Source: Candidatus Thorarchaeota archaeon (GTDB lineage: Archaea > Asgardarchaeota > Thorarchaeia > Thorarchaeales > Thorarchaeaceae). Taken from it: a stretch of DNA of 11,626 nt. This document shows, piece after piece, positions 776 to 10,854 of this stretch. The notes beneath the pieces are model-generated. The model was not told the origin of the DNA. It was given only the letters and a program-made list of their open reading frames with translations, and ran no database searches. Position numbers and translations under genes: made by a program. Each line of letters starts with the position of its first letter. Position 1 is the stretch's first letter. The DNA lies in contig DXJO01000016.1 of assembly GCA_019057475.1 (NCBI GenBank), positions 1-11,626 of the forward strand. The letters run 5' to 3'.

Positions 776-961
776 GCTGTTGCAGGGAGTCTATCAGGAC
801 GGTCAGTGGAAGGCCGCGTCATGTTGAAGCAGAACGCGCTATCATGGATGGTCAGTGGAAGGGTGCGTCATGGTGGGTAAAGAACGTAATCACGGAAGAT
901 CTGTAAGAATCTTGCTGGGCTCCCGGAGAACAACACTGTATCCGAATTCGGCGCTTGCCAA
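776..961 (+). repeat. Dispersed composite element, copy I
   Basis: CTATCAGGACGGTCAGTGGAAGG at 791-813; GAACGCGCTATCATGGATGGTCAGTGGAAGGGTG at 832-865; right module TGGGCTCCCGGAGAACAACAC...ATCCGAATTCGG.GCTTG.CAA at 916-961 matches 7555-7600. Confidence 0.95.
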
Positions 962-1039
962 CTGGTAAGACATCATACATCTAGCGTTTTTCGCCAGGAT
1001 GTATTGCGTTGGTATGAGTCTACCATATCCTGCCCGGCA

Positions 1040-2032
1040 TTACTGATTCTCAATGGAATAACTGGTTTTCCTCTTATCATATCGAATGACAATATATGCG
1101 AGAGTCAACCATATAGGCACCAAGAAGATGAGCCCGAAAACTAGATTATCGTTGTTTGAAGCCGTTAACCAAGTACCCGTGAAAATGTTTCCAAAGAATA
1201 AAGCGAGAGGTGTCCAAAGTATCAACAATGGATAATGGAAGTTTCTGTTCGATGATATCGAAACTGCACACAAATATGGAATTATTGCCATTGGGATGAA
1301 AACTAGAATTACCGCAACAATGCCTAATGCTTCAACACCGTTATCGGGTGGATAGATAGGTTGTATCATTAAAAGGGTCATAATTACCATAATTAGAGCT
1401 TGAGTAAGGAGAATGCCCGATCCTATTTTATCTAGAATTTCTAAAGTGAATTTAGACTCTATTGAGAGTTGACCTGAGTCGAGTGTAGATTTTACAGCCT
1501 TCTTCCGAAAAGCACGATTCAGGAAAATTCCTATTATGACTAAACCAATACATACTTGACTGACGTAGATAGTGGGCAGTATCACAAGTTTCACTCTTGT
1601 CGTGCACCTGAAAGAGCTGAATACCCTAATTTCTTCAGGTCCATCATTGCGATAAAGAAGAATCCATGTCGAATTTACTGGTACGTCAACTGACCAGGTG
1701 TAACTGTTGATATTCTCAATAGACAGCACAAATGATGCGGCCTCACTATTTGACCATAATTCATAGTTCTCCAAATCACAGATGTATAGGTCAATGGTAT
1801 CATTAGATTCAACCATAACATCACCGAATAACACATCACCCCATCTGCAGCAATATTGCCAGGATGCGAACGAGTATGGCTCAATCCAGAATCTTGCTGC
1901 ATCAACAGGTGAGGGTGACTGTATTTCTTGGTTATTAACGGCAATGCTGGACAGGGGCATACAAAACACTATCAAAACTATAACAGATATCATTCTGAGT
2001 GTTCTCGAATAGCGGTTGATGAAAGACATCAA
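1040..2032 (-). CDS. Membrane protein: signal peptide, GOLD-like beta-sandwich domain, then about 5 TM helices
   Basis: 330 aa ORF with an N-terminal hydrophobic segment. The 'GDVLFGDVMVESNDTIDLYICDLENYELW...YTWSVDVPVNSTWILLYRN' pattern resembles archaeal emp24/GOLD-like domains (pattern recognition only). It is AT-rich relative to its neighbours. The start may be ATG at 2029. Confidence 0.8.
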   Translation of the reverse strand: MMSFINRYSRTLRMISVIVLIVFCMPLSSIAVNNQEIQSPSPVDAARFWIEPYSFASWQYCCRWGDVLFGDVMVESNDTIDLYICDLENYELWSNSEAASFVLSIENINSYTWSVDVPVNSTWILLYRNDGPEEIRVFSSFRCTTRVKLVILPTIYVSQVCIGLVIIGIFLNRAFRKKAVKSTLDSGQLSIESKFTLEILDKIGSGILLTQALIMVIMTLLMIQPIYPPDNGVEALGIVAVILVFIPMAIIPYLCAVSISSNRNFHYPLLILWTPLALFFGNIFTGTWLTASNNDNLVFGLIFLVPIWLTLAYIVIRYDKRKTSYSIENQ

Positions 2033-2157
2033 TAGAACAATCCCAATACCACAAGCGAATCAATCTGGCAATTATCAATGAAGTATTAATAGTATTGCGA
2101 TTGATTTTTACTTCTACTACGATTTTGCAGATTCCGGGTAGCTAACTAGCAAGGGAC

Positions 2158-2841
2158 ATGAATACCATGACTGGACGAAAACGTGGATTAGCAGTACTCC
2201 TGGTTAGCTTACTCGTAATGACAATGGTATTTGCAGTATACATACTCGAGTTTGGCTCTAAGGTAGACTCGTCTCGATTGCGATGGGGGGTGAGCGAAGG
2301 CGTCCAATACGTGTACGTGGTCAACGTCAGTGGTCTTAACATGACGGGCATCAGTAATGACAGCGTTGAGTGTCCTCTATCATTCGCACCCCTAAACAAC
2401 ACAAGAATCATCACGACAGTATCATGTCTTACAGACCTTCCCGGTCTCACAGATGCTAACTCATTCGCTACCGACGTAATTATCCAGACCAAGACTGAAG
2501 TCAGTTTCGAGAATGGAACAGGCCTATCTGAACAGTATGATGAAGCATTGGTGTCACTGATTTCCTTGACTTTGCTTCCCATCGGTGACTGGTCACTGAT
2601 TGATTCGTTATACCAAGATGAGGATTCAGAGCCGCCATTCATGAAGACCTGGTATATCGCCAAGCAACGTACTAGCTCCTTCGAGATTGGTTATACGTCG
2701 TATGGACCAGACTATGCAAGTGGTTGGAGTGGGAACCTATCTCTAACAACCGGACTGCCAAACTCAGCCAATCTGTGGGCGTGGAACGCCGTTGAGTCCT
2801 TCTCATGGACACTCACAATCACACTTCTATTGAATGATTGA
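2158..2841 (+). CDS. Membrane-anchored extracellular protein, family A paralog 1
   Basis: 227 aa, N-terminal TM. Motifs WGVSEG, FAPLNNT, KT...FENG, LLPIGDW..IDS and W.G..SLTTGLP are shared with 4376..5056 and 7623..8303. AAGGGA precedes the ATG. Confidence 0.92.
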   Translation: MNTMTGRKRGLAVLLVSLLVMTMVFAVYILEFGSKVDSSRLRWGVSEGVQYVYVVNVSGLNMTGISNDSVECPLSFAPLNNTRIITTVSCLTDLPGLTDANSFATDVIIQTKTEVSFENGTGLSEQYDEALVSLISLTLLPIGDWSLIDSLYQDEDSEPPFMKTWYIAKQRTSSFEIGYTSYGPDYASGWSGNLSLTTGLPNSANLWAWNAVESFSWTLTITLLLND

Positions 2842-3027
2842 GTGTGACCGTGTTTACATACTTAGCATTGCTTCTCAAGTTTTCTAATCTTCTCCATAAT
2901 CAGAACGTACCCTTGGATACCCCAAGCCCATTCCATACACCGTAATACCCTCCCTACTAAGCTTCATGGCTTCCTGCCTTAAGCGGCAGTTGCATGTTCG
3001 ACCTGTAGGAAGCTTTTCTTGTCTTTG

Positions 3028-8963: not shown

Positions 8964-8977
8964 CCTCGCAAGACCTC

Positions 8978-9757
8978 CTATATTTCACTTCGTTCGAACA
9001 GGGCAATACTCACAACGATGAACACGAATGCCATGGACAAAGCCCCCAAGAGTCCAACCAACACATCCGCTAATAGTGGAGCGCCATCTCCGCCTAAGAC
9101 GTAGGCCAATGCCGCAGAGAGCGGGTTGATCACATGGCGCGCCGTTTCAGGAAAGCCATACAAATCTGCCAAAAGAACCATGGAATACCACAGGACCACT
9201 CCCCCGGTCGCAGATGTTGCCGCCTTCTTAGATATCACTGATAGCAGTGTCGTCACGGATGCAACCGATAATATGAAGACCCATATGGATCCAACTAGGA
9301 GAGCAACCTGTGATACTGAAGGCTGAATCCCAAAGCCAAACTGGATTGCTAACAGAAGCGCAACTGTCGCAGCAGTACCTGGTAGAACCACAGTGATGAG
9401 AATCTTGGTGAGCAACAGAAACGAACGCTTTATCGGGTGCGTCAGAATAGTGCGGATTGTACCATCCTCGAAGGGCTTTGCGATGACGAGAGAAACAAGT
9501 ACGGGCACAAGTAACACAAGCAGATACATGAAAGGGAACACTGAAAGGTACAGCAGCGCTGAGGCCGCGCTCTGAAGAAATCCTGCCAAGTTCTCTGGTG
9601 ATTCCACATCGAAGTCAGTCACGGAGCCAACGGAAAGAACATTCAGGAAAGCAAGCAGTGTAAAGACACCTACAAAGCACTCAACAATAGGAAACCTGTA
9701 GAAACTCTTAATCTCAAGACTCAAGAATGCCCTAGTTCTACTCTTCTGCTGGACCAA
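8978..9757 (-). CDS. ABC-2 type transporter permease
   Basis: About 6 TM; 'FEDGTIRTILTHPIKRSFLLLTK' matches the E.GT...LL..P..R....K motif of ABC-2 permeases. It overlaps the ATPase stop, and the TTG start is preceded by GGAGGT. Confidence 0.93.
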   Translation of the reverse strand: MVQQKSRTRAFLSLEIKSFYRFPIVECFVGVFTLLAFLNVLSVGSVTDFDVESPENLAGFLQSAASALLYLSVFPFMYLLVLLVPVLVSLVIAKPFEDGTIRTILTHPIKRSFLLLTKILITVVLPGTAATVALLLAIQFGFGIQPSVSQVALLVGSIWVFILSVASVTTLLSVISKKAATSATGGVVLWYSMVLLADLYGFPETARHVINPLSAALAYVLGGDGAPLLADVLVGLLGALSMAFVFIVVSIALFERSEI

Positions 9758-10667
9758 GTCGCATGACCTCCCGAAATGTGTCTTCTAGAGTACAGGCTGG
9801 TTCAACTCCGTAGACCTTGATAGAAGCGGAATTTGCGGCCCGTCGAATATCCGCAATGACCTCCTCAAGGTGTTCTTCTCTCGCACTGATAATCACACTG
9901 GTTGAACCGCGAATCTCTGCTGCATCGAGATGACTGATGCCCTTGATTCCGTTTAGGAGGCGATTCGCGTCTGAACTCCTAACCCGATATCGTCCAGCAG
10001 TATACTTCCCAATGAGCTCTTGCACGGGACCATCTTCCAATATTCGACCCTGATTAATGAATGCCACGTTATGACATACTCTCTCAAGCTCAGAGAGGAT
10101 GTGCGATGAGATGAAGAAAGAAACTCCTGACTCCTTGTTTTCTTCAACAATTAGGTCAAGCATTCGATCTCTACTCTCAATATCCAAATTAGATGTTGGC
10201 TCATCCAAGAAGATCAGCCTCGGATTTCCAGCGAATGCAAGGGCTATTCCGATTCTTTGATACATTCCTGCAGAGAGCTGATCCATGCGCCGATTGGCAG
10301 CGTCTTGCATACCGACGGTCTTGAGGAGCTGTTCAGCAGACTGGCTATCGCCATAGAAACGCACGACGTCTCGCACGTACTCCAAGACTCTTATAGGCCC
10401 AGGGAACACGGGCCTCTCGTGAAGAACTCCGACCCTCTCTCTTATTGCCAAGGAGTCACTGCTTGTGTCAAATCCGAGAACTTCAGCAGAGCCGTTGTTT
10501 GGTCTGATGAGCCCGAGCAAGATTCGTAGGAGAGTTGTCTTACCTGCTCCATTAGGTCCAATGAAACCAAAGATACCTGGTTTGACTTCGAGGTTCACAC
10601 TGTCGAGGGCACAGATATCTCCGAAGTGCTTCGTTAGTCCTCGAACAGAAACAACACTCTCACCCAT
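9738..10667 (-). CDS. ABC transporter ATP-binding protein (ABC-2/DrrA-like exporter family)
   Basis: Walker A GPNGAGKTT, signature LSAGMYQR, Walker B IFLDEPT, H-loop SSHIL. The likely start is ATG at 10667 (MGESVVSVRGLTK) after GAGGGG; the ORF extends to 10748. Confidence 0.97.
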   Translation of the reverse strand: MGESVVSVRGLTKHFGDICALDSVNLEVKPGIFGFIGPNGAGKTTLLRILLGLIRPNNGSAEVLGFDTSSDSLAIRERVGVLHERPVFPGPIRVLEYVRDVVRFYGDSQSAEQLLKTVGMQDAANRRMDQLSAGMYQRIGIALAFAGNPRLIFLDEPTSNLDIESRDRMLDLIVEENKESGVSFFISSHILSELERVCHNVAFINQGRILEDGPVQELIGKYTAGRYRVRSSDANRLLNGIKGISHLDAAEIRGSTSVIISAREEHLEEVIADIRRAANSASIKVYGVEPACTLEDTFREVMRLGPAEE

Positions 10668-10800
10668 TCTGCTAGCCCCTCTCGGCGGTTCAAAATCTGG
10701 ACAGCCTTCGACTACGGGTTCTCTGCCGCCACTCAGTATAATCCACATCTATGTTCTGAGGATTTAACTTTTCTGCAAGTTGAGGCCCTGTCAGATAACA

Positions 10801-10854
10801 TAAGATTTCAGAGGTGAGCCAAACACTCCCTCTTCGAGGACCTTGTGGGTTCCC
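10801..10854 (+). repeat. Dispersed composite element, copy V (right-module fragment)
   Basis: CCTCTTCGAGGACCTTGTGGGTTCCC at 10829-10854 versus CCTCTTCGAGGGCCTTGTGGGCTCCC at 7538-7563 (2 mismatches in 26). Weaker similarity extends back to TAAGA at 10801. Confidence 0.8.

Follow-up and report, generated by a model that had tools for sequence, protein, structure and literature searches.

Copies of part of a tRNA-Gly gene mark a probable, scrambled genomic island in Thorarchaeota and point to a gene-collecting hotspot

Among 3919 genomic islands in Islander, 159 carry 5′ fragments (PMC4383910), and the pTN3-like integrases of Thermococcales use the 5′ half of a tRNA (PMC8371274, PMC5495485). 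Accretion and cis-mobilizable elements (CIMEs) have been described for ICESt1-type islands (PMC5704250). The present analysis concerns a stretch of 11,626 nucleotides (nt) from a Candidatus Thorarchaeota archaeon, referred to below as the window, and the short repeats that lie between its genes. The window is the whole of contig C49 of the source assembly (GCA_019057475.1; 3.34 Mb, 96% complete), which is labelled G000; C stands for contigs, G001 and so on for compared genomes, and L for loci. An original prediction, made from the letters alone, had seen in these repeats five copies (I-V) of one element that partitions surface-protein genes into cassettes. The repeats are short copies of part of a tRNA-Gly gene, most likely left and reused during repeated insertion just ahead of the tRNA. 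On an estimate somewhat better than even, the window belongs to a genomic island that two stacked attachment systems (A and B) built and that was afterwards scrambled. These features point to a hotspot of Asgard archaea that collects genes and has not been described before; no enzyme for it was found.

The structural kind is already known, namely that of tRNA-anchored accretion islands of the 5′-fragment class. As in the Islander islands with an anticodon junction and in pTN3-like elements, the junction is in the anticodon loop, the promoter and 5′ half are displaced upstream, and the tRNA is restored downstream. In contrast to both, array blocks here lack an integrase, cargo-free units of 48-62 nt occur, and a minimal 28-bp site is conserved across genera; nor was a split integrase gene seen. 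Serial insertion that displaces older material at one site, partial tRNA copies between blocks, and integrase-less remnants that keep attachment (att) sites are shared with ICESt1-type CIMEs and tycheposons (bioRxiv 10.1101/2020.12.28.424599), from which this island differs in being archaeal, in growing on the 5′ side, and in the spread of array pieces to other islands; no hallmark gene for replication or packaging was seen in the window, though no search was aimed at such genes. Like integron arrays and clusters of attC sites lacking integron-integrases (CALINs; PMC9668308), it has short genes between co-oriented sites and no enzyme nearby, but neither an attC dyad or fold nor IntI was found, the blocks hold several genes on both strands, and most breakpoints are off the sites. 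The literature searched did not, by contrast, contain this form, in which Asgard archaea keep a minimal tRNA-derived site in several genera and have empty units with no enzyme linked to them. The same search returned no description of this tRNA-Gly array and none that combines Thorarchaeota, integron, and attC. The result assigns gene gain in Asgard archaea, whose mobile elements have been little described, to one particular place and mode, and yields two short testable substrates, the 28-bp tRNA-Gly site and a site with a 7-bp core together with its candidate integrase.

The repeats do lie where they had been predicted. An identical 34-mer occurs in copies I-IV at 832-865, 6590-6623, 7426-7459, and 8378-8411, and copies I, II, and IV match copy III with E values of 5e-35, 4e-23, and 2e-14, respectively. 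All copies are intergenic and lie on one strand, as had been stated. The notion of one single element, by contrast, was not borne out, because each copy is a different string of short modules when G000 and four congeners are compared; the repeats are a mosaic with two unrelated types of site, and copy V lacks the core of copies I-IV. The places given for the copies held, but not all of their extents: copy I reaches to 685, with a third core at 695-701, copy V spans 10784-10936, and repeats at 25-70 and 2865-2949 had been missed, as had the tRNA-Gly origin. In all, copies I-IV hold eight co-oriented sites of ~28 bp on the minus strand. Read on that strand, the site is A(T/G)GAT-NNNNN-C-CTTCCA, equivalent to tRNA nt ~22-37, followed directly by CTGACC, an arm that does not belong to the tRNA. 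The repeated features of the window, apart from copy V, are as follows.

25-70, plus strand: repeated module, B-derived plus G; 89% to C14:303-348 and 94% to G001:C5
685-734, minus strand: displaced, decayed 5′ half of tRNA-Gly(TCC), running from 734 to 695 and ending in the core CCTTCCA (701-695)
694-685, minus strand: decayed foreign arm that follows the core CCTTCCA
745-790, minus strand: copy of the tRNA-Gly promoter and leader, with the TATA position mutated to TTTGAC at 771-766
797-872, minus strand: copy I, two tandem ~28-bp sites with cores at 807-813 and 856-862 and a 49-nt period
906-961, minus strand: module N, in common with copy III (91% over 46 nt)
2865-2949, strand not assigned: repeated intergenic module P, 81-87% to C16, G005:C5, G005:C176, and G006:C314
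6520-6652, minus strand: copy II, a promoter-derived module, two sites with cores at 6564-6570 and 6614-6620 (50-nt period), and module C
7356-7600, minus strand: copy III, two sites with cores at 7400-7406 and 7450-7456, plus modules C, B (a hairpin), and N
8377-8445, minus strand: copy IV, one site with its core at 8402-8408

The stretch at 685-734 is an attL-like scar. Its 5′ half, which ends in the 695-701 core, aligns to the tRNA-Gly 5′ halves of the family with a score of 36 that none of 300 shuffles reaches. For the other seven cores the score is at chance level outside the last 11 nt, and only the last 11-17 nt are kept. The promoter and leader copy at 745-790 has 86% identity with the sequence in front of the real tRNA-Gly (G000 C21:106315-106392), in which TTAAAT stands at the box. 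Copy III, in turn, is a chimera of tRNA-Gly sites and the interior of a miniature element. Rfam gave no match to the repeats at E values up to 1. A coding origin was also considered and rejected, since the period of 49-50 nt breaks the reading frame. By BLAST, the long form of the repeat is restricted to the genus (4/6 congeners and 0/18 other genomes of the family); G000 has about 14 matches on eight contigs, many of them at contig ends.

Repeats of this kind stand directly in front of the tRNA in several genomes. In G005, modules start 24 nt upstream of tRNA-Gly(TCC), and likewise in G000 (C21) and on one metagenome contig. In the site alignment, identity to tRNA-Gly(TCC) stops exactly after nt 37, and the junction lies within the anticodon loop, as in the 5′-fragment class of islands. 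A 5′ fragment of the tRNA also lies upstream of an intact tRNA in the same orientation, the window itself not being joined to the tRNA contig. Arrays directly 5′ of tRNA-Gly(TCC) were found in G000, G005, G007, G017, G022, G050, G051, G056, G058, G063, G064, G066, G074, G080, and L108, and their range covers seven genera of Thorarchaeota. An exact pattern of the site matched 14 of 86 family genomes and gave 0 control matches; a second pattern was present in 11 of 76 genomes of the family and absent from all 224 genomes examined from other families. In a metagenome scan, the 17-mer used was too short, so that most of the 120 matches were unrelated, the real ones being L108, L154, L156, L159, and L175.

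Array units measure 55-62 nt, or 48-50 nt in the source genus, and units of 105-131 nt hold the promoter or longer inserts. Across the seven genera the ~28-bp site is conserved and the ~30 nt between sites diverge. Wherever several sites occur, they are co-oriented. Upstream of the arrays there are more sites, together with a dozen displaced fragments that comprise the promoter and the tRNA from nt 1 to nt 14-27, each followed by small membrane or hypothetical genes (G007, G066, G098, G058, G056, G051, G064, and G001). Some of this cargo in another genus (G098, 9% contaminated) is homologous to window genes. The anticodon stem of tRNA-Gly(TCC) is hypervariable, and 29 alleles (L180-L209, L240-L253, L290-L304) include about a dozen versions with full compensation; it varies even between congeners, and the array units hold varied stem strands. 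The pairs L218/L240 (G051) and L220/L242 (G007), which belong to two genera, have homologous array units that follow one order, and this suggests a transfer of the tRNA-Gly region as a whole.

Within the source genus, the genes of the window are found in other orders and neighbourhoods. The breakpoints of long homology fall at the tRNA core in 27 of 238 cases (4.3 expected) and at other modules in 9-12 (1-2 expected). The remaining 179 (75%) lie outside all modules, some within genes. One gene has three left ends (8383, 8402, and 8411) and three right ends (7506, 7529, and 7556). As most breakpoints are off the sites and gene ends are variable, the blocks are not strict cassettes. The counts of 7, 1, 1, and 3 genes between successive copies are as predicted and gene order is shuffled among congeners, but a single element that delimits discrete cassettes was not supported, and most changes do not occur exactly at the sites. 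The more general suggestion of the original prediction, that the repeats are recombination or insertion sites or their scars and not attC, was supported.

To account for these observations, it is proposed that elements of system A would insert at the anticodon loop of tRNA-Gly(TCC), ending on the 5′ side of the tRNA. The incoming element would bring a new promoter and 5′ half, while the resident promoter and 5′ half would be shoved upstream, joined to the arm CTGACC, and left to decay. The minimal site of ~28 bp (tRNA nt ~22-37 plus the arm) would be retained and reiterated, either free of cargo, as units of 48-62 nt, or with genes between. The enzyme would most likely be a tyrosine recombinase acting in trans. 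In the source genus, pieces of the array would have spread to several islands, where homologous or microhomology recombination between modules reshuffles genes. Sequence comparison establishes that the sites come from the tRNA, where they lie, how they are oriented, the filled and empty sites of system B described below, and the shuffling, whereas we infer the enzyme and crossover of system A, the order of events, and the present activity of this system. In favor of the proposal, the window holds a decayed but full 5′ half with its promoter, and at the core each of two classes of left flank is found with the same four classes of right flank. This swapping of flank classes fits an exchange at the core, but it also fits homologous recombination within a short repeat.

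Several observations weigh against this proposal. No tyrosine recombinase adjoins any tRNA-Gly array, and none was found in the array genomes G007 (94% complete) and G050 (97%); searches that covered tyrosine recombinases, IntI, the Y1 transposase, and Cas1 or casposases did not find the array enzyme. Identity spans nt 31-37, one base short of the end of the 7-nt loop. Most units lack nt 1-21 and, consequently, could not restore the tRNA if inserted there, and displaced fragments end variably (nt 9-37), for which a single crossover needs later erosion. There is no convincing viral attP, the single match being chance-like and without tRNA or array context, and no circle was seen in the assembled contigs, where the joints fit paralogous copies. 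In addition, enrichment of breakpoints at repeats is also expected from ordinary homologous recombination, and the association with TnpB described below is left unexplained. The original prediction had placed the enzyme elsewhere, and no recombinase lies beside the tRNA-Gly arrays. The HUH Y1 transposase (PF01797) was found in 0/5 congeners, at odds with elements of the REP/BIME-RAYT (repetitive extragenic palindromes, bacterial interspersed mosaic elements) or IS200/IS605 type.

At a distance of 20-50 nt on the 3′ side of tRNA-Gly, 11 of 15 array loci and 2 of 28 loci without an array have a convergent gene for a TnpB of 558 amino acids (aa) or just the right end of one (Fisher p 1.4e-5, from a hand tally in which related loci are not independent). 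G000 retains a TnpB remnant 3′ of its tRNA-Gly. The TnpBs next to tRNA-Gly are not one clade (5 changes, p-AU 1e-55) and so arrived several times. The putative TnpB guides showed no match beyond 11 nt to tRNA-Gly or the array, and this family is present in 54 of 86 genomes, often near other tRNAs. A shared hotspot or co-transfer is as likely an explanation of the link as a causal role of TnpB. The protein has Gly at the usual position of the RuvC-II glutamate and a Glu about 60 residues later, an arrangement that would match the rearranged, active type of TnpB. If the empty units are under selection and the arrival of TnpB reflects more than a shared hotspot, these loci would bear on the origin of repeat-spacer arrays beside TnpB.

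The best-supported account, somewhat more likely than not, has an unlinked recombinase insert DNA serially on the 5′ side of tRNA-Gly; erosion and shuffling through the repeats would follow, and system B would be nested in the same islands. It could be, however, that no dedicated enzyme acts on the tRNA core today, and that the short repeat of an old insertion was multiplied by unequal crossing-over and homology-facilitated illegitimate recombination. The tRNA promoter region would then anchor the recombination that multiplies the repeat and adds cargo, a kind of process that has also been proposed for the intergenic mosaic elements of Neisseria. The share of breakpoints outside modules, the variable ends of the gene described above and of the displaced fragments, and the failure to find an enzyme all favor this explanation, as does G005, which joins a C7-type site to tRNA-Gly as recombination between repeats predicts. 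It is nonetheless rather unlikely, for selection on the 28-bp site is suggested by its conservation over seven genera in which the ~30 nt between sites have diverged, and the junction always falls after nt 37. A maintained site might instead be the functional unit of an undescribed Asgard gene-capture system with an enzyme in trans, which would add and shuffle cassettes, empty or with genes, as an integron does, or would read empty units as guides in the manner of an early CRISPR array; this is unlikely, and its enzyme would possibly be tied to the elements with TnpB and a giant PD-(D/E)xK protein that lie 3′ of tRNA-Gly. Alternatively, the neighbouring TnpB could itself drive the array, through RNA-guided cuts or homing near tRNA-Gly and repair from donor alleles that adds blocks of promoter, tRNA, and cargo; the same process would move the array between lineages and favor changes in the anticodon stem. 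The association at array loci, the G000 remnant, the several origins of these TnpBs, and the dozen or so compensated stems would all fit. Nevertheless, the lack of guide matches longer than 11 nt, the four array loci without TnpB, and the commonness of the family near tRNAs, by which a shared hotspot could explain the link, make this explanation distinctly unlikely.

It is improbable that the units form a guide-RNA array, whether CRISPR-like, C/D-like, or TIGR-like, with TnpB or a Nop-domain protein as its reader and with dispersed copies in the window. Such an array would explain why units of 55-62 nt have a conserved part of ~28 nt and a variable part of ~30 nt, why ATGAT and CTGA, 12 nt apart, resemble boxes C and D, and why the adjacent TnpB is co-directional with the antisense strand. 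However, 34 units gave no signal of an RNA fold (mean z -0.25 and -0.43), each unit has one candidate C/D pair with no second C′/D′ pair or K-turn stem by inspection, and the repeats vary within an array. The units, judged by their C/D pairs and folds, do not match the TIGR layout (PMC12045711), no profile search having been aimed at Nop-domain genes; the one spacer tested had no viral match; and Cas1, found in 0/7 genomes of the genus and absent from most array genomes, showed no association, nor did casposases. An integron-type cassette array (CALIN) with atypical attC is hardly credible, even though the window has co-oriented intergenic sites between short genes and integrons are enriched in Asgard genomes (PMC9668308). 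As the original prediction had recognized, there is no attC dyad: no copy contains a RYYYAAC...GTTRRRY pair, and the fold of copy III (z +0.55 and +0.83) is no better than shuffles. Five congeners have no IntI above the cut-off (TIGR02249, best 31.5 bits against 265), although a CALIN does not require one. Moreover, the site derives from a tRNA, and gene gain or loss is not confined to it, with 27/238 breakpoints at the core.

Copy V belongs to the second type of site, and shares with copy III only a 26-bp hairpin module. Its parts and what follows them are listed here.

10784-10897, plus strand: left part of copy V, modules X-B-K, starting at GG after four different flanks
10898-10904, plus strand: 7-bp core TACAATG, left junction of an integrase element of ~22 kb
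10905-10936, plus strand: arm U, the end of the integrase element, also found beside integrase genes at C51:108859 and C29:256671
10905-11626, strand not assigned: start of the integrase element, which continues by way of C28 (overlaps of 127 and 116 bp between contigs) to a tyrosine recombinase of 420 aa from the same family as the C51 integrase

The IS607 family and its miniatures have a GG core at their junctions, make no target duplication, and use a serine TnpA. A 190-bp repeat and, as far as its ends were seen, copy V resemble them in having GG junctions, no target duplication, and the right ends of TnpB genes of 712-766 aa; a serine TnpA is encoded on G000 C53, beside a TnpB with the same right end. 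Elsewhere, X-B-K ends in TACAATG-AACGG, and for X-B-K itself the observations comprise just the left GG and the right end. Because of these GG junctions and shared right ends, the left part of copy V is probably the end of an IS607-like miniature element. The 190-bp miniature element (at least 12 copies) occurs at G000 C7:41827-42024 and at least 11 other sites, and an empty site was seen. Both it and copy V share the TACAATG end with the TnpB genes.

The TACAATG end carries three left arms (the 190-bp repeat, K, and U) and two right arms (host and U) in five combinations, and in 31 junctions the switch of arms falls exactly at the 7 bp. At G000 C51:75580-108870, a 33-kb island with defence-like genes sits in the 190-bp repeat. 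It is bounded by a U arm on either side, one of which has a tyrosine integrase of 389 aa at a distance of 40 bp; G004 and G006 lack the island and have a joined site in its place. For the window's own element, a second TACAATG core lies 22,027 bp away on the joined C49-C28-C29 path. The short direct repeat at both ends and the integrase at one are thus common to the C51 island and this path. Because the assembly has collapsed the integrase copy and because, in G006, the C29 flank is joined to the C51 side, the element may really end at C50:4497 instead of C29:256671; its size would then be similar. Empty sites in relatives were seen for C51 (G004 and G006), C7 (G000 against L055), and the C29 flank (G006), which are junctions other than the window's own. 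At C7, G000 has only the 190-bp repeat where the congener locus L055 has a 5.9-kb island with window genes and modules.

Copy V appears from these joints to be the left junction of an integrase element, and the position of the integrase suggests that it acts on the TACAATG core. The target of this family of tyrosine integrases would be the TACAATG with which IS607-like TnpB elements, and their miniatures, end on the right. Such use of the right end would set these elements apart from IS607 as described, and the literature searched held no description of an IS607-like right end as a tyrosine-integrase target. This suggests that dispersed IS607/TnpB miniature ends would act as landing pads for integrase elements of 22-33 kb. 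The open reading frame (ORF) at 10897-11283, whose stop had been cited for copy V, is probably not a gene, as it overlaps the att arm and has no homologue in G000 or the congener loci examined.

The cargo between the repeats consists of the following genes.

144-647, plus strand: 167-aa membrane protein, no Pfam match, partial paralogue at C51
1040-2032, minus strand: 330-aa membrane protein, GC 0.39, in a block at double depth in the source run
2158-2841, plus strand: 227-aa protein, hydrophobic at its N-terminus, with paralogues at 4376-5056 and 7623-8303
3028-3624, minus strand: 198-aa protein with a hydrophobic stretch at either terminus; C33, G005, and G098 have copies of ~90%
3881-4237, plus strand: ~118-aa membrane protein, homologues in congeners
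4376-5056, plus strand: 226-aa protein of the same paralogue set as 2158-2841 and 7623-8303
5309-5947, plus strand: 212-aa membrane protein with a C-terminal zinc ribbon and a homology breakpoint within it, at 5580
6047-6498, plus strand: membrane protein, ORF listed from 5944, congener homology beginning at 6029-6039
6937-7311, minus strand: 124-aa membrane protein, of which a 95% copy adjoins an unrelated integrase on C1
7623-8303, minus strand: 226-aa protein with close homologues in at least four different neighbourhoods
8463-10748, minus strand: three-gene ABC-2 exporter operon (ATPase, permease, and a 166-aa protein)

The cargo is paralogous and of uneven GC, as had been noted, with three paralogues at 33-39% identity and GC of 0.39-0.52. 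The rule that each copy lies downstream of the stop of a minus-strand gene holds for the adjacent gene only, since the block between copies I and II includes five plus-strand genes. The source sequencing run is from marine sediment, and the window was recovered from it in pieces, with breaks at the repeats. In this run, 842-2662 has twice the depth of neighbouring blocks and is a collapsed duplicate. An RNA run covers parts of the window, coverage for which DNA is a possible source.

A collapsed, multi-copy integrase of another type is found at C1:9392-10105, C17:1-676, and the end of C45 in G000, and its C1 copy is the one that adjoins the 95% copy of 6937-7311. As a candidate array enzyme it was rejected, with no module or core beside it. 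The modules at 2865-2949 and 25-70 also occur in other islands, and variation at 2933-2949 fits a deletion between short direct repeats.

Proteins of 1500-1800 aa with a PD-(D/E)xK-like motif are divergently paired with TnpB, in five copies in G000 (C53:742-9290, C42:28775-36123, C18:41295-48280, C9:15748-22933, and C54:166132-173813) and also at L240, L242, L247, and L252; this giant neighbour of TnpB had no Pfam or atlas match. On C53 the pair comes after an IS607-type TnpA. The non-coding end of TnpB (L037:1800-1830 and others) contains GGAAGGGTGGAA or CGGTCAGGGGA, which resembles the antisense tRNA-Gly arm plus the foreign arm of the site.

Finally, tRNA-Gly(GCC) may also be targeted. In G000 (C21:93808-93943) about 55 nt interrupt it behind nt 37 and the 3′ stem strand is damaged; at L108:1984, nt 1-45 of its 5′ part have been displaced. 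Short repeats are also dispersed in a second cluster, at G000 C26:102000-133400, which may be another accretion island.

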